Assembly (NCBI GenBank): GCA_044225505.1
Contig: JBGAIN010000069.1
Coordinates: 1 to 39,348, forward strand
Source of the DNA: Limisphaerales bacterium
GTDB taxonomy: Bacteria > Verrucomicrobiota > Verrucomicrobiia > Limisphaerales > SIBE01
DNA: 39,348 nt
Reading direction: 5' to 3'
Below, one piece after another: positions 7,701 through 27,158 of this stretch; the first letter of the stretch is position 1, and the number at the start of each line of letters is the position of its first letter. Made by a program: the position numbers and the translations under genes. The notes beneath the pieces were generated by a model. The model worked only from the letters and a program-made list of their open reading frames with translations, searched no databases and was not told the DNA's origin.

Positions 7701-9608
7701 ATAGGTTTGCGTGTCGACATCCGAGGGCTGGAAGCCAGTGGCAAATGCAGCCGCACGAAGCACCGTCGTCTTGCTGATCGCGATCGGTCCAGCATAGACA
7801 TTGCCATGGGTCGCGGTCGGGGTCGAACTGTCGGTCGTGTAGCGGATCGTCGCGCCTGGAGTTGCGGTCGTAATCGCGACCGTGAACGCATTCGTGAAGA
7901 AGCCGCGGTCGACGCTGAACTTCGTATCGGCCACAAAGGCGATGAAGCCGCTGCCGTTGGGAGCGCCAGGCGTTGCGGTCGCGAAATAGTTCGTACTCGA
8001 ATTTGTTACTTTGTACTCCACCAATTGTGGCACGATCAGGAAGTCGCTGTCGGACGCCGATTGATTCAATCCTTGAATGGCCAACACGTTGTTCCCGGTT
8101 TGAAGCGTGTTGAGGAAATCCGAAATGTTGATGTCTTCGAAGCTGAAGGCCGCCGAGTTCGGATGGGCCGCCGTCGCCGTCGAGTTCCACTGCAGCGCTG
8201 CTGGGGCGTTGCGGCGGGCGACTTCCACACCGTTCAGATAGGCGACGAACCCGTCATCATACATTAGGCGCAACGTGAGCGATTGCAGCGACGCTGGGGT
8301 CGCCACGGCAAACGGAACCCGGATGTAGGCGGTGGGGCTCACGCCGCTCATTTGGGATTGAACGCTGGTTTTGATGAACGACTGATAGCTCGTCGATCCC
8401 ACTCCTCCGCTGACCACGGGCGCTCGCACCGCCAAGCCACCGCCCGCCGTATCGCCGACCAGTCGGAAATTCGTCGGGTTCCATCCGGTGAAACTCCCTT
8501 TGGCCGCATACAATTCGACTTCCGATCCGCCCCCTCGTTCGTAAAAGACCAACCGCAACGCGTAATCTCCGGCTGCGGGAAAGTTGAAGGTCTGCAACGT
8601 ATCCCCTGGGCCACGCGGATCCGGGTAGGACATATTGAAATTACCGACCGAGAGAGTAAATCCGTCGTCACTATTGACTCCGAACGTCCAGTTACCCGCG
8701 GATGGAATGGTCACGGTTGCGGTCGCTTCCACCACGAAGTCTTCGATGTCGGATTCGATGGTGAAGCCCGGAAACGTGCGATCGTTGCCATAGTTGGCGC
8801 CGGTGCCAGTATTGTAATAATTGATGAACGGCGCGTTCTCCGTATACAGAGCGCTCTGCTGTGAGGGATTGGTGATCACCCCTTGCGCCGCGGCCAAACT
8901 GCTCACGCTGATGTTCGCCTTGAAATTGCGAACCGCAAACCCAGGCACGGCCGTCTCGTAGCCGACGCCTGCCGTTCCAGCCAGCCAACTGCTGTCGTCA
9001 AACGAAGTCTGCGTCCAGGATGTCCCGAGAGAACTGCCGTTGGGAACCAGGACTCGGACCGGAGCGTTCGCACCCACCAATGTGTTGGTCACGACATTCT
9101 GCGCGATGCCGTAAGAAATGTCCGTGTATTGCTGAGGAAAAGCCGGCGCAAATTCAGATGCCACACGGCCGTTGGGCTGCAACAACGCTAGGTATTCGCC
9201 ATCCGCACTAAGCTTCAACTTGGCTTGCAGTGGTTCTCCCAGCACTGTCCGATTAGTGCCGGTGGCAAACACGACAAGATAACCTTTGGCAGCGAGATTA
9301 GTGCTCGGAAACGACCATTTCGATTGGTGCGTCGCGTCGTCCGTCAAGGCCCAACCCGCCAGATTGACGCTGGCTCCGCTTGGATTGTAGATCTCAACCC
9401 AATCCGAGAAATTCCCGTTTGCGTCCACCAGCGCGGTCTTATTGTCCGCCATGAACTCGCTGATTATCACCTGACCGTGGGTGAAAGTGCTCAGCGACAG
9501 CGCCACGAGCGCGGCGAGCAATAAGCAATTGAATCGTGACCCAGGCTGGTTTCCTCCCTTGATCAGCCGCTCAGGCCAGGAGCCCGCAAGCGTGGTTGGT
9601 CGTGTCAT
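1761..9608 (-). CDS. Large secreted multidomain protein: lamin-tail domains, PA14-like and galactose-binding-like domains, FN3-associated/chitobiase-C domains, CotH kinase domain, 7 PKD/Ig-like repeats, C-terminal PVC-type ~75-aa domain
   Basis: The ORF is 1761..9962, but the first 118 aa look non-coding; ATG 9608 precedes a signal peptide (LLLAALVALSLSTFTHG|QV). Four LTD starts (VIISEFMADN, VLVTEIMYHP, VWISEALTH, IVVNEIQY), CotH motifs (RGGYSR, YHLYIDGQYWGLF..ER, NNW, HDSE), IRYTTDSSTP/IYYTRDGSDP, and repeated DDGLP...W..VSGPG.VTF units. Start codon uncertain. Confidence 0.88.
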   Translation of the reverse strand: MTRPTTLAGSWPERLIKGGNQPGSRFNCLLLAALVALSLSTFTHGQVIISEFMADNKTALVDANGNFSDWVEIYNPSGASVNLAGWALTDDATHQSKWSFPSTNLAAKGYLVVFATGTNRTVLGEPLQAKLKLSADGEYLALLQPNGRVASEFAPAFPQQYTDISYGIAQNVVTNTLVGANAPVRVLVPNGSSLGTSWTQTSFDDSSWLAGTAGVGYETAVPGFAVRNFKANISVSSLAAAQGVITNPSQQSALYTENAPFINYYNTGTGANYGNDRTFPGFTIESDIEDFVVEATATVTIPSAGNWTFGVNSDDGFTLSVGNFNMSYPDPRGPGDTLQTFNFPAAGDYALRLVFYERGGGSEVELYAAKGSFTGWNPTNFRLVGDTAGGGLAVRAPVVSGGVGSTSYQSFIKTSVQSQMSGVSPTAYIRVPFAVATPASLQSLTLRLMYDDGFVAYLNGVEVARRNAPAALQWNSTATAAHPNSAAFSFEDINISDFLNTLQTGNNVLAIQGLNQSASDSDFLIVPQLVEYKVTNSSTNYFATATPGAPNGSGFIAFVADTKFSVDRGFFTNAFTVAITTATPGATIRYTTDSSTPTATHGNVYAGPIAISKTTVLRAAAFATGFQPSDVDTQTYIFLSDVIRQSPNGEVPAGWPATWGGNVVDYGMDPNVVNNAAYSGTILSDLQTIPSFSIVTDLPNLFDAANGIYANPGGDGISWERPASVELLFPTGAGGFQIDAGVRVRGGYSRSGGNPKHAFRFFFREEYGASKLKYPMFAKQNGAEEFNGFDLRTFQNYSWSFEGDSRGVFVRDQFSRDTQIAMGQPGERGDYYHLYIDGQYWGLFNSDERPEASFAASYFGGEPEDYDVVKVDPGRGYNIYATDGTLDAWTRLWQAAVNGFASDAAYQKVQGNNPNGTRNPAYEVLLDVDNLIDYMLVILYGGNLDAPISNFLGNSSPNNWFGFRHTNGLSGFRFVAHDSEHTLLDVNQNRVGPFSAGDPTSGGGLLKSNPQYVFQQLWQNTEFKMHLADRVQKHFFNGGVLSPSSALARFMARKTEIDRAVVGESARWGDSKREPALTRNSEWLAEINRIANNYIPQRTGIVLNQLKTKGLFPSIAAPSFNQFGGNVPSGFALTLTAPTGTIYYTRDGSDPRVRGGAVAASALTYSSSITLAQSAQIKARALSAGVWSALIDATFYVTQTYTDVLVTEIMYHPPDTVLQDGDAFEFIELKNVGSGARELSGVHFEGIDFTFPIGSFVGPGQFVVLVSDRTAFASKYPGVHVDGVYQGKLANSGETVTLWHAAGTPLFSVHYDTQAPWPVAADGTGFSLVSLNPNLNPDPNNASNWRASSTVGGSPGADDSAPNVLPVWISEALTHTDLPQLDSIELYNPNQVAVSIAHWYLTDTRAEPFKFRIPASDSRATIPAGGYVVFSENDWNANASAPNSFRLNSHGEEIYLYSADANGSLTGFSDGFAFGPADNGVSFGRYLTSTGAAQYPAQTAVSLGGANAGPRVGPIVVNEIQYQPAAGDAEYVELKNITGAVVQLYDPAAPTNTWRLNGLGFSFPMNTEIPANGFVLLTAGNPSAFRTRYSVPASVAIYGPVPGVLQDNGETLSLQRPGPPDLDTNTGTYFIPYIDVDVVDYSSQAPWPTGASGTGAALERLNASAYGNDPINWRASPGAPSPGVDNVGNRPPLVSAGADQSLLVTNVPITLNLSGSATDDGFPVPPGALSASWTQLNGPANVVFGNASLPATTATFPALGTYVLRLRATDGALETTASITITLAQATVPVTFIPKGSVWKYLDDGSDQGTGWRPPAFNDGAWKSGAAELGYGDSSDGRPEVTTVGFGPDANSKYVTTYFRHRFQVTGAASVKNLTVSLMRDDGAIVYLNGTEVFRDNMPSDTVDSLTLALSVVGGQDEATFYTQPANPALLVEGANVLAVEVHQANRPSSDLSFDLELAGEGIPGSPSPVNQAPIVNAGPNQTITLPGNVALSGTASDDGLPSAPGRLTLAWTKASGPGTVTFTAPSSAISSASFSIAGTYVLRLTATDGALSTTSDVTIGVLDNAPPVVNPGANQTVPLGGTAILSGTVTDDGLPNPPAKVTATWSVVSGPGNVTFSSPATPSTSATFSTGGIYVLRLTATDSARETSGDVTVQVVQNKAPVVTALADQLVILPAAVALNGVITDDGLPNPPAQVLAAWSMVTGPGTVTFANPSTPVTTASFSAAGTYLLRLAADDGALQSASEVTIRVLQNAAPIVNAGAAQTVTLPATLTLQGSVTDDGLPIPPGKVTTSWSSVSGPGTVTFSDASALNTTVAFSTNGTFILRLTANDGALSAADDIAVRVGENAAPVVNAGANQTILFPASVSLQGTVTDDGLPTTPGQIFVGWSMANGPGVVTFSTPGSTNTTATFSLGGTYVLRLTATDGSLQSSADVTVQVLQNTAPVVSAGPNQTITLPASASLQGTATDDGLPASPGQVTVGWSTVSGSGLVTFLNDSVSATTATFSAAGIYILRFSATDGMLQASSEVTITVLDKAKSPQIDLSGLALSSSSSGFRFSFTSAPGTRYTVQFRDSLSEGGWNSLSVVPPEAASRTINITDPNIGQSTRRYYRLLVE
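2010..3700 (-). repeat. Six tandem ~94-aa (282-bp) PKD/Ig-like repeats within the CotH-like gene
   Basis: Units NxxPVVNAGxNQT...DDGLPxxP...WxxxSGPGxVTF...FSxxGxYxLRLxAxDG begin near 3698, 3416, 3134, 2852, 2570 and 2288; a seventh copy lies at ~4260-4545. Confidence 0.9.
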
Positions 9609-9991
9609 CGCAAATGAGTGTAAAACAATCGTGCGCAGGTCGCCCTTCCCGCCCAGAATTTGGGCCGTAATTCCACAGCGACTACTTGAAAAACGGAATG
9701 GGAGCAAAAACCGGGCCGTTCTAGCGCAAGTGAAAGCCAACGCGATCAATCCGACCTTGAGATGCGCTGCAGACCAACTTAATGTCTGCGACACCTGGGG
9801 CGGGGGGACCGGGCCATTGCAGGTCGGCCTGGTACGCGACCCACTCGTGCACGGGTGGACTGACTTCATGCGCAACGAGAGGTTCAACTCAGGCCAACTC
9901 AGACTGATGTAAACTCTTGCGGAAGGTGTGTTTTCTCTTGACTGGCGCACTCGGACTTGCATGCTCCCGATAGGCGAAACACCAGTTCCCT

Positions 9992-12900
9992 ATGAGTCTG
10001 ACTTGCTTCCTCAGAGGTCGGCCAAATCGGTGCGAAGTAGTTCATCCTCGATGGGGAATTCATCACCCAATTCCGTGCATCGCCAGAACACCTTGCCTTC
10101 GGCTGCTCGGTGGTCCTGCGAGCGGGGCATTTTGGTTGGCTGTAGCGTTCTGGATCTCTTGGTCCTGGCATCACGCGGATGCTCAGTCCGGTGAACCCAC
10201 GCTCTTTGTATCTGACGTGCAGAGCGGACAGATCGAACTCTCGTGGACCGCAACAGCCACTGACTTTGTGCTCGAATCATCGGCGAGCCTCTCTTCGCCA
10301 CAGCGATGGCAGCTCGCGCCTGAGCCGGTCCGACGGGTGGCCGATTATTTCTCCGTCACCGTTACGGCAGGAGATACGACGCAGTTCTTCCGGTTGCACT
10401 ATGCGCCTGCACCATTGCCGGTGGACCCAGTGACGGTCGCCTCCGCGCTTCCTCAGGCCAGTGCGAGCGATGTCGGAAGTGCCACGACATTCCTTTACAC
10501 CGGGGCGAACCCGATCCAAAGCGGCGTGAGCAACGGGACGATCCAACCGGTCCGAGCCGCAGTGTTGCGTGGACGGGTGAAACGACGTGACGGCTCCGCG
10601 TTGTCCGGAGTTAGGGTCTCGGTGCTCAACCATTCGGAGTTCGGCCAAACGCTCACCCGCGCGGACGGCTGGTTCGATCTGGCGGTTAACGGCGGTACGA
10701 CGCTCACGGCGAAGTACGACAAACCAGGGTTTTGTTCTGTGCATCGACATATCCACGCCGAACAGCAGAACTACACAACGTTGCCTGAAATTGTGATGGT
10801 GCCGGCCGATCCCTTGGTAACTCCGATCGCGTTTGGAACGAATTCACCCTCGCAGATCGCGCGCGGCAGCGCGCAGAGTGATGCCAGCGGGGCGCGACAG
10901 GCCACGCTGCTTTTCCCTTCCGGCACGTGCGCGGACTTGGTGATCAATGGCGCAAGGCAGGCGTGCGGCACGCTCAACTTCCGCATCACCGAATTCACCG
11001 TCGGTGCGACCGGTCCGTCGGCCATGCCCGCGCCGCTTCCTCCGACCAGCGCGTATACGTATTGCATGGAGATCACCGCGGACGAAGCAACGGCTGCCGG
11101 AGCGGATATTGTCGTCAACCAACCTCTCTGTTTCTACGTGGATAACTTTCAGAAGGATCCGGTCGGCATGGAGATACCTGTTGGCGACTACGACAGGCAA
11201 CGCAGTGTGTGGGTCGCCCAACGTAACGCTCGGGTGATCAAGATCCTCGGCGTCACCGCAGACAAAGCAGACTTGGATACGGATGGCGACGGTCAGACCG
11301 ACCCGGCGGCAACTTTAGCCGCACTCGCCATTAACGACGAAGAACGCCGGCAATTAGCCAAACTCTACAAGCCCGGCCAGAGTCTGTGGCGGAGCTGTAT
11401 TGGCGGCAGTTCGGCTGGGGCCGCACGATCCATCGGCCTGCAGGCGGCCAGGCCGCATCAAGTCGATCCAGCGATCGTCCCCGTTGTCGTAGGCGGAGTT
11501 GTGAATGTTGTCCGTGACATCAACAAGCCTGTAAGACAGGGATTCACGAATCTGCTTTCGCTGAGTCAAAAGCAATTCGATGCGCTCTTTGCTCGTGGGG
11601 CCATGATCTGCGAGAGGTCGGTGATTTCCCCGGTGAACCAAATTTTCGGAGAGAACATTCGATTGGTCGGGGTCCCCTTCTATTTACATTATCGCAGTGA
11701 CCGCGTTCTCGGGCGCCGCGCAGCGGCGACCATGGAAATTCCGCTCACTGGCAACGCGCTTCTTCCCGCAAATCTCAAGCGCATCGAATTGACCGTGAAC
11801 ATCGCTGGGCAGTCGGTGGATCTCGTTTTCCCACCTCTCCCTCCGAATCGGAGCTACACCTTCACTTGGGATGGGCGCGATGTGTATGGCAGGTTCTTGA
11901 ACGGTGCCCACACCGCGAACATTCGTGTATCCCACGTTTATCCTGGCGCCTATGGCATGACCGCGGAATCGGCTTACGCGTTCGCGTTGGTTGGTGACGC
12001 CACGGTCGCCGTGGGCGAGCATACCTACGGCGAGAATGCCGTCATTCAGCAATTCACGGCACCGGTGGCCGCTTACGATGCTCGCAGGTGGGGGGTAGGT
12101 GGGTGGACACCAAGTGCGCATCATTACTACGATCCCAATGGCCGCGTGCTCCTCTACGGCTACGGCGAACGCCGAAGTCTGGAAGGAGGCAATGCGCAGG
12201 TGATTGAAACGTTCGCTGGGAACGGACTGCGTTGCGCGGGCAACAACGATTTGGTCTGCAACGAAGGCCGGCCCGCACCTCACGTCCCAATGACGCCAAC
12301 GGATTTTGCCTTTGGCCCTGATGGCAGCCTCTTCTTTGTGGATAGCTTAGGTTGGCGCGTCCGACGGGTTGACCCGAATGGGGTCGTCACCACGGTTGCA
12401 GGCACGGGCTTGGACTGCGCCAATCCCGCTTTCCCTTGTGCGAGTAACGAAGGCCCGGCCCGGCAGGTAGATATTCGTCCGACCGCCATCGCGGTTGGGA
12501 CCGATGGTGTCCTTTACATTTCGGAGGCTGGGAACGGTCAAATTCGCCAGGTTGGACCAGACGGCATGATGAGAACCATCGCGGGGAACCGCGGGACCTG
12601 CTTGCCCTTTACGGCTATCTGCGGCGAAGGACAAGTGGCGACAGAGATCTCAATCCGGCCTGGTGCTCTGGCTGTGGGACCCGATGGCTGCCTGTATTTC
12701 ATTGATCGTCACGTCGTCAGACGAATCGGTCTGGACGGCACGGTGCACACCGTCGCCGGCGGTGGGTCGGTTTTCATGGAGGAAGTCCCAGCGACCCAAG
12801 TGCAGTTGGTCGAGCCGTGGAACATCGCGTTCGGTCCGGACGGCAGCCTCTACATCGCGAGCGATTGGCGGGTGAGCCGGATGACGGTGGACGGAATCAT

Positions 12901-15900
12901 CCGCACCATCGCGGGAACGGGTCAAGCCTACCAATTGACGGACCCAACGGGCGATGGCGGGCCGGCCACACAAGCCAGATTAACGGCCTTCTGCCGGGTC
13001 GCGGTGAGCTCAGACGGGACTGTCTTCATCATCGAGAACAATAATAACGGCCCAAAACGCGTCCGGCGCGTGGGGACGGATGGCATCATCACGACGCTCG
13101 CTGGCGGTTCCGCGGGTTGCACGACGGCCTCGCCGTGCGGTGAAGGCGGCCCCGCCGCGCAAGCACGGCTCTACGGTCCGGGCGATGTCGAGGTTGGACC
13201 GGACGGCGCGCTCTACTTTTCCGACGGCAACGCGCCTCCTCCAGGCAATGGTGGCTACATACGCCGCATCCAGGGCGGTCTGGAAGGCTTCACCGGGGCT
13301 AGTTTCCTCATCCCTTCCGAAGACGCAAGTGAAGTGTATGAGTTCGATCGGAACGGGCGTCACTTGCGAACGATTCACCCGCTGACCGGCACAACCTTGC
13401 TGACCTTCCAATACGATTCTGCAGGCCGGTTGGTCCGAATGGTCGATGCGGACAATGACACCACGACCATCGAACGCGACGCCGTAGGAAACCCTACGGG
13501 TATTATCGGCCCATACGGTCAACGAACGACCCTGGTCCTGGACGGCAATGGCTACTTGAGCCGCGTATCGAATCCCGCAAACGAGAGTTGGCAGTTTGAA
13601 TACGCCAACGGCGGATTGCTGACGAAGATCACCGACCCCAATAACCACACCACATCCGCGAGCTACGACGCGTTGGGCCGCTTTGCCGCGGAAACCGATG
13701 CGGCCGGCGCGACCCTCACCGTCACACGCACCAACACCGGGCAGGGACGCGTCACCGCCAGCACGACCGCTCAGGGGCGTGCGACGAAGTATCAAGTGGA
13801 ACAGGACGCCGCCGGAACACGCCGCTCGGTCAACTCGTTCCCGGACGGGACCCAGGCAACAGAAGCGGAGGCTGCCGACGGCACGACCACCAACCTGTTC
13901 GGCGACGGCATGTCCCTCCTGCGCGTGGAAGGGCCGGACGCACGCTTCGGCATGTTGACGCCGGTGCCCGCGCAATCTGTTTTGCGGACCCCAGGAGGAT
14001 TAGCGGCCACGAACACATTCGATTCGCGAGTCACTCTCACCAACGCGGACAATGTGCTGAGCCTGTCGAATTTGATCGAGACACTAAGTGTGAACGGTCG
14101 CGTGTTCACCAGTTCGTATTCCGCAGCGGCACGCACATTCACGAACATCAGCGCGATGGGGCGGCGCAGCACACTGAGCATCGACACCCTGAGCCGACTA
14201 GTCGGGACCGGTGTGGATGGAGTATTACCGGTTGCTTACAGGTATGATCATCGCGGACGATTAACAAACGTCCTGCAAGGTGCCCCTGGGGTTTTGAGAA
14301 CTGAGTCGTTTGCCTACGATTCGAGCAGCTACTTGAATCGGATCGCGGATCCTCTCGGGCGTGTCGCAAAGTTCGCTTATGAACCAGCAGGTCGGATATC
14401 CGCGCAGACACTCACCGATGGCCAAACCGTTCAGTACGGCTACGACGACAAAGGAAATCTTACATCCCTCAGTCCACCGGGGCAACCCGCGCACGTCTTT
14501 TCTTACACGTCGGTCGATCTCTTATCCGAATATCTCCCGCCGGACATCGGTGCTGGCGACACGCCTACCCGCTACGCCTACGGTCCCGACCGCGAACTCA
14601 CAAGGGTAACGCGACCGGATGGACTCACGCTGGAGTTGAATTACGATAACGGCGGAAGCTGCAGGTGCGGCAAGCTCACGTCCATTGTCCAGCCGCGCGG
14701 GACGAATGACTTCCAATACGATTCCGTGACCGGCAATCTGACGAACGTCACAGCTCCTGACGGCATCCGCCTGGGCTACGCTTACGACGGCGAATTTCTC
14801 ACCAACGTAATGTACACCGGTTTGGTTTCGGGCAGTATCAATTATCGCTACGATTCCGACTTCCGTCTCAGGTCCGTCGGCGTCAATGGCGCCAACTTTA
14901 TTGACTACCAGTACGACGCGGACAATCTGCTCACAAACGTCGGCAGGTTGAAACTCATTCGCGATCGCGCGAACGGCCTCCTCACGCACACCGAACTGGG
15001 CGTCGTCACCACAAGCTACGAATATAACAGTTTCGGCGAAGTGACGACCTACGCCGCCGCTGCCAACGGCGTGCCTCTCCTGTCCGTCCACTATGTCCGT
15101 AACGCGGTTGGGCGGATCTTAGAAAGGACCGAGACAATTCAAGGTGCCACGGATTCATATGCCTACGCCTACGATCAGACTGGGCAGTTGACCGCCGTCA
15201 CTAAGAACGGTGTAATCACTGCCAGCTACTCTTACGGCCCCAACGGAAATCGGCAGAGCGGTCCTGGATTGTCCACGCCACCCAGTTACGATGCGCAAGA
15301 CCGAATGCTCCGATACGGTGTCGCCAGCTACACCTACACGCCCGCGGGGGAACTCAAATCCAAGACGACTGCTGGACAGACGACGAGCTACGATTACGAC
15401 CTTCTTGGAAATCTAATTCATGCCTCGCTGCCGGATGGAGCGCGCGTCGAATATCTGGTCGATGGACAAGACCGGCGCGTGGTTCGGAAAGTCAACGGGT
15501 CGTTTACTAGCCGTTTCCTTTGGCACGATGAACTCAAACTTGCAGCGGATTTGGACGCCGACGGAAATGTAACCACGCTCTTTGTGTATGCTGGAAGACC
15601 GAATCTTCCCAGTTACCTGGTGCGAGAGCGGCAAACCTTTCGCTTGATTACTGATCATCTCGGAAGCCCGCGCCTAATCGTGAATGCCGACAGTGGAGAA
15701 GTCCGGCAGCGGATCGACTATGATGAATGGGGTAACATGACGCGTGATACCAGCCCTGGGTTCCAGCCGTTTGGTTTCGCGGGCGGTCTTTACGATGCGA
15801 GCACCGGACTAGTCCGCTTCGGCGCGCGCGACTACGACTCGCTGACGGGACGATGGACCTCCAAGGATCCGCGCCTGTTCGCCGGAGGCAGTGCAAATCT

Positions 15901-16435
15901 TTACACTTATGTCTCAAATGACAGCGTCAATTCCGTGGACTATGCTGGTGCGGATCAAAGTTTTGGAAAAAGCGGTGAAGCGGATATTGCGCCAATCGAC
16001 CTGACGCCTGTTTACAGCCGCGGCCCGTTTGGACTGAATATCGGCACAGGATATTCCTTGACCGATCTCAAGGAAAGATTTCACGGACGGATCGATAACG
16101 ACCACAAGGTCGAAATTAAAGACGACGATGGTCGATGGCACCGCGCTACACTTCTTAGATTTCGATGCGGCGGTAGCCAAGGAGGAATCTTTATAAAGCA
16201 CCGAGGGAAATATTTTCTGTTCTACGGCTATTCCATCGACAAGGAGGGCAAGTTTAGCACAAGCCAGCGGCTTAGAAGAGGGGGCATCAATAATTCAGAA
16301 CTGATTGCTGAACTTCAATCCAAGGCCTCCGGAGCGAAAGAACGGCAAATCCTCGGCGACATGAGCAAGATGGCGGCGGTTTTGAACTACAAGAATTTCC
16401 ACCCTAGTCCAGGATTAAGATCTGAGTGGTGGTGA
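9992..16435 (+). CDS. Teneurin-like YD/RHS-repeat protein (signal peptide, carboxypeptidase-regulatory-like Ig domain, FN-plug-like region, NHL propeller, YD shell, RHS core, variable C-terminal cargo)
   Basis: Signal peptide (FWLAVAFWISWSWHHADA|Q); AVLRGRV...TRADGWFDLAVNGG; LHYRSDR and YTFTWDGRDVYGR; six [IVL]AGxG...GxxA NHL blades; many YD repeats; RHS core TDHLGSPR...YDEWG...QPFGFAGGLYD...RFGARDYD...RWTSKDP...NLYTY...DYAG, followed by ~160 aa of unique sequence. Confidence 0.9.
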   Translation: MSLTCFLRGRPNRCEVVHPRWGIHHPIPCIARTPCLRLLGGPASGAFWLAVAFWISWSWHHADAQSGEPTLFVSDVQSGQIELSWTATATDFVLESSASLSSPQRWQLAPEPVRRVADYFSVTVTAGDTTQFFRLHYAPAPLPVDPVTVASALPQASASDVGSATTFLYTGANPIQSGVSNGTIQPVRAAVLRGRVKRRDGSALSGVRVSVLNHSEFGQTLTRADGWFDLAVNGGTTLTAKYDKPGFCSVHRHIHAEQQNYTTLPEIVMVPADPLVTPIAFGTNSPSQIARGSAQSDASGARQATLLFPSGTCADLVINGARQACGTLNFRITEFTVGATGPSAMPAPLPPTSAYTYCMEITADEATAAGADIVVNQPLCFYVDNFQKDPVGMEIPVGDYDRQRSVWVAQRNARVIKILGVTADKADLDTDGDGQTDPAATLAALAINDEERRQLAKLYKPGQSLWRSCIGGSSAGAARSIGLQAARPHQVDPAIVPVVVGGVVNVVRDINKPVRQGFTNLLSLSQKQFDALFARGAMICERSVISPVNQIFGENIRLVGVPFYLHYRSDRVLGRRAAATMEIPLTGNALLPANLKRIELTVNIAGQSVDLVFPPLPPNRSYTFTWDGRDVYGRFLNGAHTANIRVSHVYPGAYGMTAESAYAFALVGDATVAVGEHTYGENAVIQQFTAPVAAYDARRWGVGGWTPSAHHYYDPNGRVLLYGYGERRSLEGGNAQVIETFAGNGLRCAGNNDLVCNEGRPAPHVPMTPTDFAFGPDGSLFFVDSLGWRVRRVDPNGVVTTVAGTGLDCANPAFPCASNEGPARQVDIRPTAIAVGTDGVLYISEAGNGQIRQVGPDGMMRTIAGNRGTCLPFTAICGEGQVATEISIRPGALAVGPDGCLYFIDRHVVRRIGLDGTVHTVAGGGSVFMEEVPATQVQLVEPWNIAFGPDGSLYIASDWRVSRMTVDGIIRTIAGTGQAYQLTDPTGDGGPATQARLTAFCRVAVSSDGTVFIIENNNNGPKRVRRVGTDGIITTLAGGSAGCTTASPCGEGGPAAQARLYGPGDVEVGPDGALYFSDGNAPPPGNGGYIRRIQGGLEGFTGASFLIPSEDASEVYEFDRNGRHLRTIHPLTGTTLLTFQYDSAGRLVRMVDADNDTTTIERDAVGNPTGIIGPYGQRTTLVLDGNGYLSRVSNPANESWQFEYANGGLLTKITDPNNHTTSASYDALGRFAAETDAAGATLTVTRTNTGQGRVTASTTAQGRATKYQVEQDAAGTRRSVNSFPDGTQATEAEAADGTTTNLFGDGMSLLRVEGPDARFGMLTPVPAQSVLRTPGGLAATNTFDSRVTLTNADNVLSLSNLIETLSVNGRVFTSSYSAAARTFTNISAMGRRSTLSIDTLSRLVGTGVDGVLPVAYRYDHRGRLTNVLQGAPGVLRTESFAYDSSSYLNRIADPLGRVAKFAYEPAGRISAQTLTDGQTVQYGYDDKGNLTSLSPPGQPAHVFSYTSVDLLSEYLPPDIGAGDTPTRYAYGPDRELTRVTRPDGLTLELNYDNGGSCRCGKLTSIVQPRGTNDFQYDSVTGNLTNVTAPDGIRLGYAYDGEFLTNVMYTGLVSGSINYRYDSDFRLRSVGVNGANFIDYQYDADNLLTNVGRLKLIRDRANGLLTHTELGVVTTSYEYNSFGEVTTYAAAANGVPLLSVHYVRNAVGRILERTETIQGATDSYAYAYDQTGQLTAVTKNGVITASYSYGPNGNRQSGPGLSTPPSYDAQDRMLRYGVASYTYTPAGELKSKTTAGQTTSYDYDLLGNLIHASLPDGARVEYLVDGQDRRVVRKVNGSFTSRFLWHDELKLAADLDADGNVTTLFVYAGRPNLPSYLVRERQTFRLITDHLGSPRLIVNADSGEVRQRIDYDEWGNMTRDTSPGFQPFGFAGGLYDASTGLVRFGARDYDSLTGRWTSKDPRLFAGGSANLYTYVSNDSVNSVDYAGADQSFGKSGEADIAPIDLTPVYSRGPFGLNIGTGYSLTDLKERFHGRIDNDHKVEIKDDDGRWHRATLLRFRCGGSQGGIFIKHRGKYFLFYGYSIDKEGKFSTSQRLRRGGINNSELIAELQSKASGAKERQILGDMSKMAAVLNYKNFHPSPGLRSEWW
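13876..13968 (+). repeat. 93-bp near-identical block shared by the two RHS genes (partner 16901..16993)
   Basis: Direct comparison shows one mismatch at offset 3025. A second 73-bp block, 14099..14171 vs 17124..17196, also has one mismatch. Confidence 0.9.
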
Positions 16436-16469
16436 AAACTGAACCCGCCTTCAGAATAGGACAGATCCA

Positions 16470-19445
16470 ATGCTGGCGTCTTCAAGAAACATCGTTGCTC
16501 GAGCTGCAATGCATGTGCGAGTTCCTCTGAATACTCGCGAAGACCGACAACAGAGTGCGGGCTTCCGTCCGCTTGGCCGTTCAGGGCGGAGGCACGTTGG
16601 CGACGTCAAATGCTATTCGTTTTTCTTGCCGGAGCCGGGTGCATCTTGCGCGACCGGATCCTTTGCTGCGCTGATTTTGCTGCTCGTACTCTGCCGACAC
16701 TTCGTGGCTCAGGCCGTGTCTCCCAATGTGGCGGATGCACCGGGCGTCTCTCTTGAAAACGCCGCCTCTGGCCGTATGACGACCAGCACAACGGCTCTCG
16801 GACGCGTGACCAAATATCAAGTGGAGCAGGACGCCACAGGAGCTCGCCACTTAGTGAACACCTTTCCGGATGGGACGCAGTCCCAAGAAACTAAAACGCT
16901 CGACGGCACGACCACCAACCTGTTCGGCGACGGCATGTCCCTCCTGCGCGTGGAAGGGCCGGACGGACGCTTCGGCATGTTGACGCCGGTGCCGACGAGG
17001 TTTATTCTGCGAACTCCGGCAGGATTGACCGCGACGAAATCTGTCGAGCAAACTATCACGCTCGCCAACCCGGGCGTTCCGTTGAGCGTGTCGAACTTGA
17101 CCGTAATACTGACCGTAAACGGACGCGTGTTCACCAGTTCGTATTCCGCAACGGCACGCACATTCACGAACATCAGCGCGATGGGGCGGCGCAGCAGGTT
17201 GACGATGGATACGAGAGGCCGACCCGTCACCGCCGCTGTGGACGGACTGCTGCCAGTCACGTTCGCCTACAACGCGCGCGGCCGACTGACCAACATCACG
17301 CAAGGAGCGGGACCCGACGCCAGAACCGCCAGCTTCGTTTACGACGGGAATGGTTGCTTGAGCCAGGTCACCGATCCGCTAGGACGGTTCGCCCGGTTCG
17401 CTTACGACGCGACGGCGCGATTGACCAACCAAACACTGCCCGATGGGCGCACCATACGATATGCCTACGACCTGAAGGGAAACTTCATGTCGGTCACGCC
17501 GCCCGGACGTCTTGCGCATAAGTTCTCGTACACCCCGGTCGATCTGATCTCGGAATACATTCCGCCGGCCATCAATATCCGCGACGCGGGGACCCGCTAC
17601 GCTTACAACCAGGATCGCGACCTCACGCGCGTGATCCGTTCCGACGGACTGACGATTGATTTGGTTTATGACAACGGCGGAAGCTGCAACTGCGGCAAAC
17701 TCACGTCCATCGTTCAGCCGCGCGGGACCCATTCGTTCTACTACGATCCCGTGACTGGCAATCTCGCGAACCTTGCTTCAGGCGACGGCGTCTCTTTGAG
17801 CTACGCCTACGACGGGGCGCTTCTGACCAACATCACTTACAGCGGTGCGGTCTCCGGCACGGTGAACTACACCTACGACTCCGATTTCCGTGTTGCATCC
17901 GTCGGCGTCAATGGCTCGGATTTCATGCAATACCGTTACGATGGCGACGGCTTCCTGACAAACGCGGGATCTCTTGTGTTTACTCGATCCTCGGAAAACG
18001 GATTCATTACGGCCGGCGAGTTTGGTAACTCTACGGAGACACGCGCGTTCAACGGCTTTGGACAGCTGGAGACCTATCGGGTTGACTCTGGAGGGAAAGC
18101 GCTATTCTCCGCACAATACTCGTACGACAAACTTGGACGCGTCAAGCTGGTGATCGAAACCATCGTGTCCAGCGCTCCAATCACTTTTGACTACAGTTAC
18201 GATTTGGGGGGGCGCCTGATGGAGGCGAAAGAGAATGGTGCCATCCAAGGTGCGTTTACCTACGACGCCAATGGGAACCATCTTACAAGCGATCTCGGTC
18301 CTGCGACTTATGACGCCCAAGATCGCCTCGTCCGACTGGGGCTTGCCAATTTTGAATACGGCCCGGATGGAGAGCGGCTCACCAGAACCATCGACGGCCA
18401 GGTGACGAGTTATTCCTACGACGCGTTGGGGAATCTCGTCGCCGTGAAGCTGCCGGACGGACGGAGAGTGGATTACTTCCTTGATGCTCTAAATCGGCGC
18501 GTTGGTCAAAAGGTGGACGGAGTTTTATCGCATTTTTACCTTTACGACGACGAGTCGCGGATCCTCGCCGAACTCGATGGCCACGGTAAATTAGTGAGCC
18601 GCTTTGTTTATGGGGATGATGAAACAGTGCCGAGTTTCCTAATCAAGTCTGGCCAAGCTTACCGGTTGGTGACGGACCTCAACGGGAGCGTGAGGCTCGT
18701 CATTCACGCAGCTTCCGGAACGATTGCGCAGCGGCTGGATTACGACGCGTTCGGAAAGGTTCTGTCGGACACGAATCCGGGCTTTCAGCCATTGGGTTTT
18801 GCCAGTGGCCATTACGATCCGCTCACCGGACTGACTCATTTCGGAGCGCGAGATTATGACGCGGAAGCGCGCCGATGGATCACGACGGATCCTCTGTTGT
18901 TTGGCGGACTGGACGCGAATCTGTACGCCTACGCATTTAATGATCCGGTCAACTTCGCCGATCGAACGGGCGGAAAAGCGCGGCCACTCTCCGGCAAATC
19001 GGGAGTCGGGCATTCCTCGGGCACTAAGGCTAATCCGTCCGGCATCGATATCAAAATCAAAGGCAAGAAAGTCACGATCAAGGCCGGCGATTCCCATTGC
19101 TCAGGCTCGGTCAGCTCCAGCGATTGGGCGAAGTTCCTGAACACACTTGCGAACGGGCAGAAGCCAGACTTGAAATTCAGCTTCAAATTGTTTGGCGGCA
19201 GTGGATCGCTCGACGCGAAGGGCTTCAACTTTGGGTTAGGAACCGGAGGCGATCTGCTCGGCACCACACCGGACGTTTGGAAACAATTCATTCAGCATGT
19301 CCAAGCGGGTGGGATGGACACACCGGAGGGATATCGGATCTGGCAAGGGTTGCACGACCAGATCATGCAGCACATCACGGATCAAACCGCGCTCAAGGCG
19401 GCACAGCGCGTTGCCGACTTCCTGGGCAGCATTGCCAATCCGTAA
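16470..19445 (+). CDS. Second YD/RHS-repeat protein: paralogous C-terminal part of the shell with a different C-terminal cargo and a signal-peptide-like leader
   Basis: Colinear with the upstream gene from 16770 (vs 13745) to the RHS core (VTDLNGSVR...QPLGFASGHYD...HFGARDYD...RWITTDP...DPVNFADRTG). Hydrophobic FAALILLLVLCRHFVAQA precedes the homologous part. Start uncertain (16470, or TTG 16626). Confidence 0.85.
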   Translation: MLASSRNIVARAAMHVRVPLNTREDRQQSAGFRPLGRSGRRHVGDVKCYSFFLPEPGASCATGSFAALILLLVLCRHFVAQAVSPNVADAPGVSLENAASGRMTTSTTALGRVTKYQVEQDATGARHLVNTFPDGTQSQETKTLDGTTTNLFGDGMSLLRVEGPDGRFGMLTPVPTRFILRTPAGLTATKSVEQTITLANPGVPLSVSNLTVILTVNGRVFTSSYSATARTFTNISAMGRRSRLTMDTRGRPVTAAVDGLLPVTFAYNARGRLTNITQGAGPDARTASFVYDGNGCLSQVTDPLGRFARFAYDATARLTNQTLPDGRTIRYAYDLKGNFMSVTPPGRLAHKFSYTPVDLISEYIPPAINIRDAGTRYAYNQDRDLTRVIRSDGLTIDLVYDNGGSCNCGKLTSIVQPRGTHSFYYDPVTGNLANLASGDGVSLSYAYDGALLTNITYSGAVSGTVNYTYDSDFRVASVGVNGSDFMQYRYDGDGFLTNAGSLVFTRSSENGFITAGEFGNSTETRAFNGFGQLETYRVDSGGKALFSAQYSYDKLGRVKLVIETIVSSAPITFDYSYDLGGRLMEAKENGAIQGAFTYDANGNHLTSDLGPATYDAQDRLVRLGLANFEYGPDGERLTRTIDGQVTSYSYDALGNLVAVKLPDGRRVDYFLDALNRRVGQKVDGVLSHFYLYDDESRILAELDGHGKLVSRFVYGDDETVPSFLIKSGQAYRLVTDLNGSVRLVIHAASGTIAQRLDYDAFGKVLSDTNPGFQPLGFASGHYDPLTGLTHFGARDYDAEARRWITTDPLLFGGLDANLYAYAFNDPVNFADRTGGKARPLSGKSGVGHSSGTKANPSGIDIKIKGKKVTIKAGDSHCSGSVSSSDWAKFLNTLANGQKPDLKFSFKLFGGSGSLDAKGFNFGLGTGGDLLGTTPDVWKQFIQHVQAGGMDTPEGYRIWQGLHDQIMQHITDQTALKAAQRVADFLGSIANP

Positions 19446-19460
19446 CGGCCACGGCCAGCC

Positions 19461-21851
19461 ATGAAGCATCACCAACTTTCAAATGCTCGGTGCATCTCTT
19501 CGGTCTTGCTCTGGACGATTTTTATGCTCTGCCCGAGTTTGGGGCATTCCGCCATTGCACCGCGCATTGTTAGCACCGTGTCCGACGGTGCGATGCTGCG
19601 TCTCATTTGGACTGGGGATTCTCCAGCCTATCGCGTGGAGCGGACCTTTGACTTGACTCCGGTCCTCTGGGTCCCTGCTTTATCAACGACGCTCACGAAC
19701 GCTAATTTCCCTCTCTCAGGCACCGCGGTCTTTTATCGTGTGGTGGCAATTCCGTCCGTCGACGCGTCAGAGGTGTCCGATGCGCGACGGTCTCAGATAT
19801 TGGATGCGATTAGCGAAAAAATCGCTTTACTTTCCGGTGACGAGATTGACGCGGATAATCGCGAACTTTTGAGGTTCATGGCGCAATTCCCCGAGTTTGA
19901 TGGCATGGGCATCGCCATCGACGGCGTTTCGATCGCGGCGCGGTTCCGAGACGGGCGGCTGTATACGATTATCAACAACCGCGAAGATCCGGGACCGCAG
20001 GCCTACCAGCCGGGTGGGAATGAGCTGGCGGGTATTCGGCTTCCACTTTTGGAAGCGATGGCAGTTCCGACGGATGCAATCAAGGATCGAAGGCAACCCT
20101 CCCGCGCGCTTGCTGTCACCTCGCCCGTGACAGCCGCGCCGGGCATCCCAGTCTCTCGGCGAGTGGTCTTGTTCAAGGCCACATTGCCGGGCATCAAATC
20201 TCCCGTGCTGGACTATCTAGTTCCTGCATTTGCCAACCGGGGTTATGACGTTCGGAGCGGAGAAGCCACTCTCCCTGCTCTTTTGAACGTTCAGAATTAT
20301 GGCAATGACATTGGTGTGTTCTACATCGATTCCCATGGTGGCCATATGCCAGCCCGGTGGGAGTACGAAGATCCCGTCAATAAGGTCACCGTCGTCGAGG
20401 AGTTTGAAGTGTTTTACGTGATGACTTCCACGATCAAAACGCCGGAGAACGAGACTCTCTACTCATCATCCCTGGAAGCGCAAGAACTGGGTTACGCATC
20501 GTTTGGATCCCTGGTTCTGAAAGGACTCCGCCGAGAAAATGAACCCGGACCGATCGAACCTCCGAAGCCGGTCGAACCCAAGCCGAAAGAGCCTGTTTAT
20601 TATTGTGTCAGCGCCGCCTTTGTGAAACGGCATTGGAGTTTCTCCAAGAATAGCTTGGTTTACATTGACACTTGCCTCAGCGCGAACCCCCTTTCCGATC
20701 CCATGTGGAATCGTTCTTTCGACAAAGGAGCCGCCACTTACCTTGGATGGACCAAGAGTGTCCACGACACCACTGCGTTCCGAACAACTCTTGCGCTGTT
20801 TGATGATCTGTTGGGCGGAAGCCAAATCTTTCCGGCTTCACCCCGCCAACGTCCCTTCAACTTTAGCGACATCAGGACCTTCCTTCACCGAGCGGGCCTA
20901 GACTATGACCACAACCCAAAGCTGGCGGCAGTGCTGACGAGTAAGACGGGCCCAACAGCGAATGGCCAGTTCGCGTTGCTGGCGCCGAGCATTCAATCCA
21001 TGCGAACGGACGAGAGCAAGGGAGAGTTGCTCATTACGGGTCTGTTTGACACCAATGCACCGACCTTAGTCACTCTGTCTCTAGATGGCTCGATTAAAGA
21101 ACTGCCGGTGATGGGTGTGAATGCCAACGGAGTCCTGGTGTGTTCTCTGCCTGCTGCCGATTCGCTGGCATTTGGGAATGTCACCGTCGTTCAACATGGC
21201 CACCGCAGCAACACGGTCCCACTGTCCGCCTGGCGCGTGCGCGGACTCCTCGCCCGGCATTTTGGCCCTGGTGCCCCCCAACCGGCCGCGACTTACGAAT
21301 TCAAGCTCTTCCTTCGCGCTGATGTGCACAGCTTCCGTCGCGCGCCGCACGAGATACCGGTTTTCATTGGAAGCGGCGGCCAGGCAGGCGTGGGTTCAAC
21401 GTGCCGTTTTGTGGAAGCATCGGGGGTGGCTTTCCCAGACGTGGAATCGCCTCTGAACTCGGTGAAATGGATTTCCACGAAGGAACAGCCGATCAACTTA
21501 CCATTGGTTTACACTATTCCAAAGCCATCCGATAGTGATTGGTTTCGTGGTTCCGTCGGATTCAACCCATTGAACTCAGTTTACGTCAGTGTCGAAGCCA
21601 ATGCTCAAGACGCGGTGACCGTCACCGAAACCGTAGTGGATCCTGTGCAAGGTCCGATCGAAATTAGATACCTGTTCAGTCCCGACACCCGCGTTTACAG
21701 CCCGACCTTCAGCAACGGTTCCTGGGACCGCGCTTCGTTTATGATTCAGGCAGGGCAAGGGCCCACCCGTGGAGAAAATGGAATCGTTCGTTGGGAGAAT
21801 TCGCCGGCCCTGAATCCGCCCAGTCAGGACATTCCGGGCTACGCGGAATAA
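19461..21851 (+). CDS. Secreted protein with N-terminal PVC-type ~65-aa domain, putative clan CD (caspase/gingipain/CHAT-like) cysteine peptidase domain and IPT/TIG-like Ig domain
   Basis: Signal peptide (VLLWTIFMLCPSLGHSA); VFYIDSHGG (H292) and LVYIDTCLS (C405), each after a hydrophobic strand, then GAATYLGW; PSI...LLITG.F...GNVTVVQHGHRSN resembles IPT/TIG. The peptidase call is an inference. Confidence 0.65.
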   Translation: MKHHQLSNARCISSVLLWTIFMLCPSLGHSAIAPRIVSTVSDGAMLRLIWTGDSPAYRVERTFDLTPVLWVPALSTTLTNANFPLSGTAVFYRVVAIPSVDASEVSDARRSQILDAISEKIALLSGDEIDADNRELLRFMAQFPEFDGMGIAIDGVSIAARFRDGRLYTIINNREDPGPQAYQPGGNELAGIRLPLLEAMAVPTDAIKDRRQPSRALAVTSPVTAAPGIPVSRRVVLFKATLPGIKSPVLDYLVPAFANRGYDVRSGEATLPALLNVQNYGNDIGVFYIDSHGGHMPARWEYEDPVNKVTVVEEFEVFYVMTSTIKTPENETLYSSSLEAQELGYASFGSLVLKGLRRENEPGPIEPPKPVEPKPKEPVYYCVSAAFVKRHWSFSKNSLVYIDTCLSANPLSDPMWNRSFDKGAATYLGWTKSVHDTTAFRTTLALFDDLLGGSQIFPASPRQRPFNFSDIRTFLHRAGLDYDHNPKLAAVLTSKTGPTANGQFALLAPSIQSMRTDESKGELLITGLFDTNAPTLVTLSLDGSIKELPVMGVNANGVLVCSLPAADSLAFGNVTVVQHGHRSNTVPLSAWRVRGLLARHFGPGAPQPAATYEFKLFLRADVHSFRRAPHEIPVFIGSGGQAGVGSTCRFVEASGVAFPDVESPLNSVKWISTKEQPINLPLVYTIPKPSDSDWFRGSVGFNPLNSVYVSVEANAQDAVTVTETVVDPVQGPIEIRYLFSPDTRVYSPTFSNGSWDRASFMIQAGQGPTRGENGIVRWENSPALNPPSQDIPGYAE

Positions 21852-27147: not shown

Positions 27148-27158
27148 GTTCACACAGT

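Follow-up and report, generated by a model that had tools for sequence, protein, structure and literature searches.

The window analyzed here is a 39,348-nt stretch of contig JBGAIN010000069.1 (assembly GCA_044225505.1), which belongs to a Limisphaerales bacterium of the Verrucomicrobiota. It contains three co-oriented open reading frames (ORFs) on the plus strand, hereafter genes 1, 2, and 3, which are separated by gaps of only 34 and 15 nt, respectively, as an initial annotation of this DNA had also recorded (Table 1). Genes 1 and 2 encode YD/RHS shell proteins with C-terminal tips, and gene 3 encodes a protein of predicted clan CD fold. The initial annotation had proposed that the three genes, each with a signal-peptide-like leader, constitute one export-and-release module. 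Hydrophobic segments were indeed found in all three leaders, but only that of gene 3, at aa 14–24, lies at the canonical N-terminal position; in genes 1 and 2, the segment is preceded by 44 and 64 residues of Arg-rich sequence, respectively. No in-frame alternative start occurs before the hydrophobic core of gene 1, and the codon score of its leader was not coding-like in any frame.

Table 1. Features of genes 1 to 3, numbered from the first letter of the window
Feature	Position	Strand	Basis
Gene 1, full-length bacterial teneurin-like protein (TLP), 2147 aa	9992..16435	+	Pfam and phmmer to PDB
Gene 1 leader, aa 1–66: Arg-rich, then hydrophobic aa 45–55, ADA/Q	9992..10189	+	Sequence, hydropathy
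TTR and TIP-like region, aa 153–472	10448..11407	+	Aligns with 9ifo 364–684, 330 bits
FN-plug, aa 541–665	11612..11986	+	Aligns with 9ifo 722–843
NHL beta-propeller, aa ~728–1080	12173..13231	+	TEN_NHL, E 8.4e-34
YD shell, aa 1109–1987, ends in Rhs-associated core	13316..15952	+	TEN_YD-shell 1109–1963; TIGR03696 1910–1986; 9pt5 alignment
65-nt exact repeat, gene 1 copy, codon phase 2, aa 1295	13876..13940	+	Longest exact match
Tip 1, 160 aa, 18.1 kDa, pI 9.5, one Cys	15953..16432	+	Homologue of Obscuribacterales family
Gene 2, 5'-truncated shell plus tip cassette, 991 aa	16470..19445	+	TEN_YD-shell, RHS_repeat, TIGR03696
Gene 2 leader, unique, 88 aa; AGGA 8 nt before ATG; hydrophobic aa 65–75, then AQA/V	16470..16733	+	Sequence, hydropathy
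Gene 2 shell fragment, aa 89–835, with R794, D807, D831	16734..18974	+	Alignment to gene 1
65-nt exact repeat, gene 2 copy, codon phase 2, aa 144	16901..16965	+	Longest exact match
Tip 2, 156 aa, 16.4 kDa, pI 9.6, one Cys	18975..19442	+	No homologue found
Gene 3, predicted secreted clan CD (gingipain/CHAT/caspase-fold) protein, 796 aa	19461..21851	+	AF2, Foldseek, VIA
Predicted caspase-hemoglobinase-fold domain, aa ~225–510, with H292 and C405	20133..20990	+	VIA model range 224–510

Gene 1 was matched by the Pfam families TTR_TEN1-4 (aa 187–269), FN-plug_TEN1-4, TEN_NHL, TEN_YD-shell, and RHS_repeat. In a phmmer search of the PDB, its top matches were the entries 9pt5 and 9ifo, titled 'Teneurin-like protein' (aa 541–1986, 1158 bits); animal teneurins came next, at approximately 345 bits and below, and type VI secretion system (T6SS) Rhs and Tc entries scored far lower. 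Both top entries are of BiTLP from Bacillus inaquosorum, a member of the bacterial TLPs, which are described as rare polymorphic toxins of 139 genomes in six phyla (Raoelijaona et al. 2026, PMC13018210). According to that source, the TLP shell encloses a C-terminal domain of on average about 15 kDa, which is cut by an Arg/Asp/Asp aspartyl protease (R2103, D2116, and D2140 in BiTLP); a second cut falls in the FN-plug of BiTLP, between G723 and S724, a disulfide links its C719 and C2216, the TIP region is present in 96% of TLPs, and an immunity gene lies downstream of 'almost all' of them.

Gene 1 has the same order of parts, from TTR, TIP-like region, FN-plug, NHL, and YD shell to the Rhs-associated core and a polymorphic tip, with the TIP boundaries taken from a figure legend of that paper and not from a model. 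Its R1946, D1959, and D1983 align with the three protease residues of BiTLP at identical spacings of 13 and 24 residues, and E541-R542-S543 aligns with E722-G723-S724, the Ser of the FN-plug cut site being conserved. The two tips at this locus, 16 to 18 kDa, are close to the average of about 15 kDa, and a Sec-type leader is predicted rather than T6SS parts. By every criterion testable on sequence, the immunity gene excepted, gene 1 is a TLP, whose shell would cut off tip 1 by its own aspartyl protease (R1946/D1959/D1983). Furthermore, C540 adjoins the FN-plug site and each tip contains exactly one Cys, which might recall the C719–C2216 disulfide of BiTLP. The proposal of a teneurin-type shell with cargo in gene 1 and a second cargo cassette in gene 2 was thus borne out; the description of the shell-toxin family in 2026, structural and functional (PMC13018210), was not known to the initial annotation.

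Gene 1 also differs from the described TLPs. Downstream of it lies a truncated shell-plus-tip copy instead of an immunity gene; the second autoprotease motif is not DPxG but DYAG (gene 1) or DRTG (gene 2); and no lipobox was found here, whereas signal peptidase II (SPII) processing is predicted for the Gram-negative TLPs. The host, a member of the Verrucomicrobiota, falls outside the six phyla, and neither 'Verrucomicrobi*' nor Planctomycetes is mentioned in the main text or in five supplement files of the paper. Compared with the Tc TcB-TcC cocoon and the T6SS Rhs effectors (6suq, 7q97, and 8h8a), gene 1 shares an RHS/YD shell around a C-terminal toxin predicted to be cut off autoproteolytically. 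Its plug, however, is of the teneurin type, formed by FN-plug/NHL, where the others have a TcB propeller or an Rhs N-terminal plug, and gene 1 alone makes up a complete shell. It also stands apart from the T6SS effectors, as no PAAR, VgrG, or TssC was found in the 95%-complete source genome. The initial annotation had noted no PAAR, VgrG, or TcA gene; in line with this, a Pfam scan of 20 window ORFs revealed no PAAR, VgrG, or Tc family, and PAAR_motif, VipB, and Phage_GPD gave no match in the whole genome, the search controls giving matches. VRP1 (TcA) was not found in the genome either, but the control for this search gave no match anywhere.

Gene 2 encodes a second, incomplete copy of the shell. 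Its residues 89–845 were 54% identical to residues 1236–1995 of gene 1 up to a common GKSG, beyond which the two proteins diverge completely, in agreement with the earlier statement that their C termini of about 160 aa are unrelated. Gene 2 lacks the TTR, TIP, FN-plug, and NHL regions as well as the first approximately 127 aa of the shell. The longest exact match between the two genes is a 65-nt repeat that lies in the same codon phase in both, and a crossover at this repeat was computed to yield an in-frame TLP of 2142 aa carrying tip 2. Between aa 1280 and 1400 of gene 1, the two genes share approximately 84% of their nucleotides, with 0.81–0.88 of third positions identical; further 3' of aa 1400, identity falls to 44–57% in several windows and that of third positions to 0.14–0.67. 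Such a gradient of synonymous identity, together with an in-phase repeat of 65 nt, is the trace expected of gene conversion or cassette exchange. The GC content at third codon positions was 0.66–0.76 upstream, 0.59 at the 3' end of gene 1, 0.53 in tip 1, and 0.70 in tip 2, a pattern that would fit tip 1 being the later arrival, which displaced an older tip.

In rhs loci, repeat-mediated recombination can swap an orphan tip onto the full-length gene, and classical orphan cassettes carry an immunity gene after the tip. Orphan rhs-CT/rhsI modules are located downstream of full-length rhs genes in Salmonella, E. coli, and Dickeya (PMC3967940 and PMC3150448). By analogy with these modules, the anatomy of gene 2 is that of an orphan rhs cassette: its core is 5'-truncated, homologous to the main gene, directly downstream of it and co-oriented, its tip is different, and a repeat tract is present that would permit a tip swap onto the full-length gene. 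It departs from them in that the shell fragment is long (747 aa) and only 54% identical, in that it has an ATG, an AGGA, and a hydrophobic leader of its own, and in that the carrier is a TLP and not a T6SS Rhs protein. The word 'orphan' does not occur in the main text of PMC13018210.

Metagenome runs from several studies, labeled as activated sludge or bioreactor metagenome, hold the region of genes 1 and 2 (13.5–19.7 kb) almost complete, and some of them may be the source of the assembly. Contigs of two runs, X5 and X6, match the locus with 0–1 differences and break at the gene 1/gene 2 repeat, and a 2804-nt contig of X5 spans the junction of the two genes. These breaks are located at 13905–14156 and 16901–17215, so draft assemblies may mis-join or split genes 1 and 2. 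Five short identical contigs from two RNA-library runs of one study lie on the 3' half of gene 1, and one of the five spans 16358–16548, across the gap between genes 1 and 2; this gives a weak hint of transcriptional read-through from gene 1 into gene 2, as DNA can occur in such libraries. Among the RNA-library contigs, none was located on gene 3 or within the body of gene 2, which is uninformative in a comparison limited to assembled contigs. Readthrough of the gene 1 TGA into gene 2 was considered and rejected, since a TAG follows 8 codons on in that frame.

No ORF of at least 20 aa with a credible coding signal follows tip 1 or tip 2, in line with the initial annotation, which had noted no small ORF after either tip. 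The next gene after tip 1 is the truncated shell copy, and that after tip 2 is the 796-aa gene 3. For comparison, we searched 401 genomes of the phylum with the FN-plug and NHL regions. Matches were obtained in 13 genomes, source included, and TLPs in five, namely the source and four others with ORFs of 2021–2506 aa confirmed by Pfam; the three genomes closest to the source gave matches to the NHL region only. With ORFs listed from 100 aa upward, a small co-oriented ORF stands right after the TLP at two of these four loci, G265 (140 aa) and G382 (163 and 114 aa), and at neither G373, where a 436-aa fn3/FG-GAP protein follows, nor G229, where the next gene is convergent. The 114-aa ORF of G382 (L049:11282-11626) has a weak RHS_repeat match (E 7.3e-5) and may be the remnant of a displaced cassette. 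The absence of an immunity gene at the locus studied here is most likely explained by cargoes that do not harm the producer, an option that is indirectly supported by the homology of tip 1 to proteins of a family absent from the producer.

Neither tip gave anything usable in Pfam (E up to 10), NCBIfam, PDB sequences, or the ESM Atlas, and no homologue of tip 2 was found among proteins of 274–2000 aa or in metagenome contigs. For tip 1, a search of proteins of 281–2000 aa returned 12 proteins with E up to 0.01, mostly of approximately 320 aa. One of them was 35% identical to tip 1 across 136 columns, and the best homologues shared 37 of the 56 C-terminal residues, so at the sequence level tip 1 corresponds, as a diverged homologue, to the C-terminal half of this roughly 320-aa family. 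Its members have a membrane segment at the N terminus, then a Pro-rich linker, and finally a domain of about 250 aa that ends in the invariant ...SGAKE..L.DMSKMAAVLN.... In species genomes, the family was found at 77 loci, 67 of which are titled Obscuribacterales, Obscuribacter, Melainabacteria, or Cyanobacteria; of the remainder, eight are titled 'bacterium' and two come from a Flavobacterium metagenome-assembled genome (3-kb contigs), and none of the 77 is verrucomicrobial. The source genome has no other copy of the domain, and at 15 metagenome loci of the family an RHS shell was never present (0/15), all being of the free-standing form. Across 40 codons that surround the C-terminal helix, tip 1 and two family genes share 35 of 40 residues, but only 82–88 of 120 nucleotides and 17–23 of 40 third positions. 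Residues kept while synonymous sites diverged indicate long-standing purifying selection, not a recent transfer. A PDB profile search with the family gave no match, and the AlphaFold2 (AF2) model of tip 1, built from 43 sequences, was poor (pLDDT 53), with only the C-terminal helices confident.

At three of four Obscuribacterales loci (L052:6001-9558, L063:5932-9175, L080:5902-9288, and L099:5803-10396), the gene after that of the approximately 320-aa protein encodes a homologous protein of 770–828 aa with 7–9 membrane-like segments, and neither protein of the pair has a Pfam or NCBIfam match. At the fourth locus, L099, which carries a paralogue, the next gene encodes a 1155-aa TPR-CHAT protein, a neighborhood that we treat as coincidence. 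The 828-aa neighbor shows no relationship to gene 3 or to this CHAT protein.

Gene 3 had no match in Pfam, NCBIfam, or PDB sequences, and membership in Peptidase_C25, CHAT, or Peptidase_C14 was not found. Nevertheless, its family comprises 950 cluster representatives with E up to 1e-3, or 668 at 1e-10 (clusters of 50% identity), its nearest named homologues come from metagenome-assembled genomes of Verrucomicrobiales and Verrucomicrobiae, in keeping with the phylum of the source, and in an alignment of 47 members both H292 and C405 were at least 90% conserved. The AF2 model was confident (pLDDT 89.5, pTM 0.87), and Foldseek ranked the gingipains Kgp and RgpB first (probability 1.00). With VIA-align, the Z scores were 13.7 for SAVED-CHAT (8tl0_A, 183 aligned, rmsd 3.0), 13.6 for separase, 12.1 for RgpB (4ief_D, 184 aligned, rmsd 3.5), approximately 11 for Craspase CHAT, and approximately 10 for caspases. 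In the model, H292-G293 follows the strand 284–290 and C405 follows the strand 394–403, as in clan CD. The clan CD-like assignment of the initial annotation therefore holds for the modeled fold and the putative His/Cys dyad. Like the gingipains RgpB and Kgp (MEROPS C25; PDB 4ief, 1cvr, and 4rbm), gene 3 has a predicted caspase-hemoglobinase fold, an Ig-like domain after the catalytic domain, and a predicted signal peptide; it differs from them in its 10–16% identity to solved chains of clan CD, in the 113 residues from H292 to C405, which include a Pro-rich loop, and in extra N- and C-terminal beta-sandwich domains. Among the 47 members, eight have a TIG domain and one a weak CHAT match (E 0.0055). 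A PDB profile search with the family returned only weak Ig-domain matches, and a contig scan with gene 3 alone as the query returned none.

Whether gene 3 belongs with the RHS genes was examined by its distribution. It was matched in 23 of 201 genomes of the order, source included; of the 22 others, five (G125, G141, G146, G005, and G089) match beyond the N-terminal module and 17 only at residues ~20–124. The source genome itself has paralogues on contigs C22, C272, and C195, the latter two lying at contig ends and possibly being one gene. The paralogue on C22 (L005: 10303-14317, minus strand, and 14569-15975, plus strand) begins 22 nt after a gene for a secreted SBBP beta-propeller and also adjoins a gene for an extracytoplasmic function (ECF) sigma factor that carries a fused SecDF_P1_head-like domain. 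Reciprocal tblastn was then performed on nine loci with gene 3 homologues, of 7–20 kb each and several of them cut by contig ends, and on the other four TLP loci found in the phylum. An RHS shell was found at 0/9 of the former and a gene 3 homologue at 0/4 of the latter; the neighbors of the gene 3 homologues were beta-propeller, DUF7453, lectin/FGE-sulfatase, flagellar, and cadherin-like genes. The initial annotation had itself named a lack of synteny between its third gene and RHS genes in relatives as a refutation of its proposal, and this is what was observed. A 709-aa ORF after the TLP of G265 was examined as a possible gene 3 homologue and proved not to be homologous. The flanks in the three closest genomes were unusable for synteny, their orthologues being only about 60% identical and the contigs short. 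Gene 3 is probably not a dedicated partner of genes 1 and 2 but an independent neighbor, which at most shares a transcript with them because it lies close by.

Taken together, we favor, with moderate confidence, the reading that genes 1 and 2 are a TLP-type polymorphic-toxin locus in which gene 2 is a displaced tip cassette, with gene 3 most likely a mere neighbor and with no immunity gene. Gene 1 would be exported by Sec, the superfold of its FN-plug, NHL, and YD shell would enclose the 18-kDa tip 1, and the aspartyl protease of the shell would release this tip, as its conserved residues suggest. RecA-type recombination at the 65-nt repeat, within the tract of about 84% identity, would delete 3,025 bp and put tip 2 onto the full-length carrier; gene 2 may in addition be expressed as a protein in its own right. 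Gene 3 would act separately as a secreted gingipain-like cysteine peptidase, and the cargoes would spare the producer, tip 1 deriving from an Obscuribacterales-specific domain of a lineage foreign to it. Several observations weigh against this reading. An immunity gene is missing after gene 2 as well, unlike in classical orphan cassettes, and its absence is atypical in view of the gene downstream of 'almost all' TLPs. No joint of 13.9 kb to 16.9 kb was seen in DNA contigs, which drop rare variants. No terminator-like site was found in either gap among genes 1–3, the synteny sample was small, with several of its loci truncated at contig ends, and neither the TLP nor gene 3 occurs in the three closest genomes, so the two may share an accessory island with some functional tie. 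Finally, gene 2 keeps an intact frame of 991 codons at only 54% identity to gene 1 and possesses its own ATG with an AGGA and a strongly hydrophobic leader, features less expected of a silent cassette. These last features would suit an independently translated, Sec-exported truncated shell, a TcC-like half-cocoon with an open N-terminal end from which tip 2 is freed after autocleavage, which we judge possible but not probable. Its AGGA stands 8 nt upstream of the ATG, its leader is the most hydrophobic of the three and is followed by AQA/V, the autoprotease residues R794, D807, and D831 are conserved, the public gene call accepts a protein of 978 aa from M14, and the RNA-library contig covers the start region. 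Yet a shell without FN-plug, NHL, and its first approximately 127 aa cannot form a closed container, no gene nearby encodes a partner for the missing half, the coding score of the leader is weak and the leader has no other copy in the source genome, and the synonymous gradient with the in-phase repeat is typical of gene conversion or cassette exchange.

The three-gene module of the initial annotation, in which two exported shells are opened, or their cargo is activated, outside the cell by the clan CD protease of gene 3, appears most improbable. The absence of a shell from all nine gene 3 loci and of gene 3 from all four TLP loci speaks against it, as do the 950 clusters of the gene 3 family set against rare TLPs, present in 5/401 genomes of the phylum, and the aspartyl autoprotease residues kept by both shells, which make an outside protease unnecessary for the tip cut. 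What remains in its favor is the close spacing without a terminator-like site, the hydrophobic leaders of all three proteins, the intact conserved dyad and predicted clan CD fold of gene 3, the fact that the three closest genomes lack both the TLP and gene 3, and the lack, in PMC13018210, of a known mechanism for cargo release from the TLP shell. Also very unlikely, in our view, is an ordinary immunity function that is merely hidden, be it elsewhere in the genome, in a very small or overlapping ORF, or in the 88-aa leader of gene 2 as the immunity protein of tip 1 or its remnant. The stretch of 298 nt from tip 1 to the shell homology is the expected site of an immunity gene and encodes a hydrophobic helix, almost all TLPs have such a downstream gene (PMC13018210), and an RHS locus on contig C245 of the source genome has small ORFs between its tips. 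This leader, however, is in frame with the gene 2 shell without a stop between them, no separate ORF of at least 20 aa with a coding signal follows either tip, and only gene 3 follows tip 2. Gene 3 was itself rejected as an immunity protein, since the nine loci of its homologues carry no RHS shell in their flanks and its family comprises 950 clusters. As to what tip 1 does, it is a doubtful but testable thought that it acts as a cross-phylum mimic weapon, which copies the C-terminal domain of an Obscuribacterales envelope protein and competes with the resident protein in a neighboring cell. The almost invariant 36-residue helix may be held identical by selection in both lineages, and the contested partner would perhaps be the conserved polytopic membrane protein encoded alongside. 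A producer without that pathway would need no immunity gene.

The array on contig C245 (17006-22763, minus strand) looks classical: an RHS 3' end with its tip is followed by a 153-aa ORF with a membrane-like N terminus, a 651-aa RHS fragment, a 310-aa ORF, and a 317-aa RHS core end. The classical layout, in which tips alternate with small ORFs, thus occurs in the source organism. RHS-shell matches were also obtained on at least 8 further contigs of its genome, yet T6SS parts were not found. Genes 1 and 3 have N-terminal modules that recur elsewhere. That of gene 1 (aa ~67–140) matches three other large ORFs of the source genome, one of them beside an RHS gene (contig C123). That of gene 3 (19563-19751, aa 35–97), a six-stranded beta-sandwich right after the predicted signal peptide (pLDDT >90), is found again in 17 further genomes of the order, at the N terminus of ORFs of 116–2767 aa. 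The two modules are weakly alike, the observed score being reached in 19 of 500 shuffles, and could be a lineage-specific surface or sorting module.

Upstream of gene 1 and divergent from it (1761-9962, minus strand) lies a gene for a giant secreted protein of 2733 aa, whose start is only 29 nt from that of gene 1 on the opposite strand. The protein has four LTD domains, PA14, CotH kinase-like, and Fn3_assoc/CHB_HEX_C domains, and seven K319L-like PKD domains; with 27–39 matches in each of the three closest genomes, it is a member of a large paralogous family. Downstream of gene 3, the Pfam scan of the window identified a flagellin gene, a lipocalin, ECF sigma factors, one of which (25666-27153) has 495 aa and a long C-terminal extension, and the kdp operon.

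The locus represents a system of known kind, a TLP with an orphan-like cassette, found here in a new phylum and, unusually, without immunity genes. It extends the TLPs to another phylum and, on the reading favored here, shows tip exchange in the style of orphan cassettes on a teneurin-type carrier. Gene 3, for its part, flags a large, confidently foldable family of predicted secreted clan CD peptidase-like proteins without a Pfam or NCBIfam model. As a natural case without a visible immunity gene, the locus bears on what TLP cargoes are aimed at, and the origin of tip 1 is the most interesting lead: its homology supplies a concrete hypothesis on what this toxin family may target. If the mimic proposal were true, tip 1 would represent a polymorphic toxin whose cargo is derived from the target's own protein.

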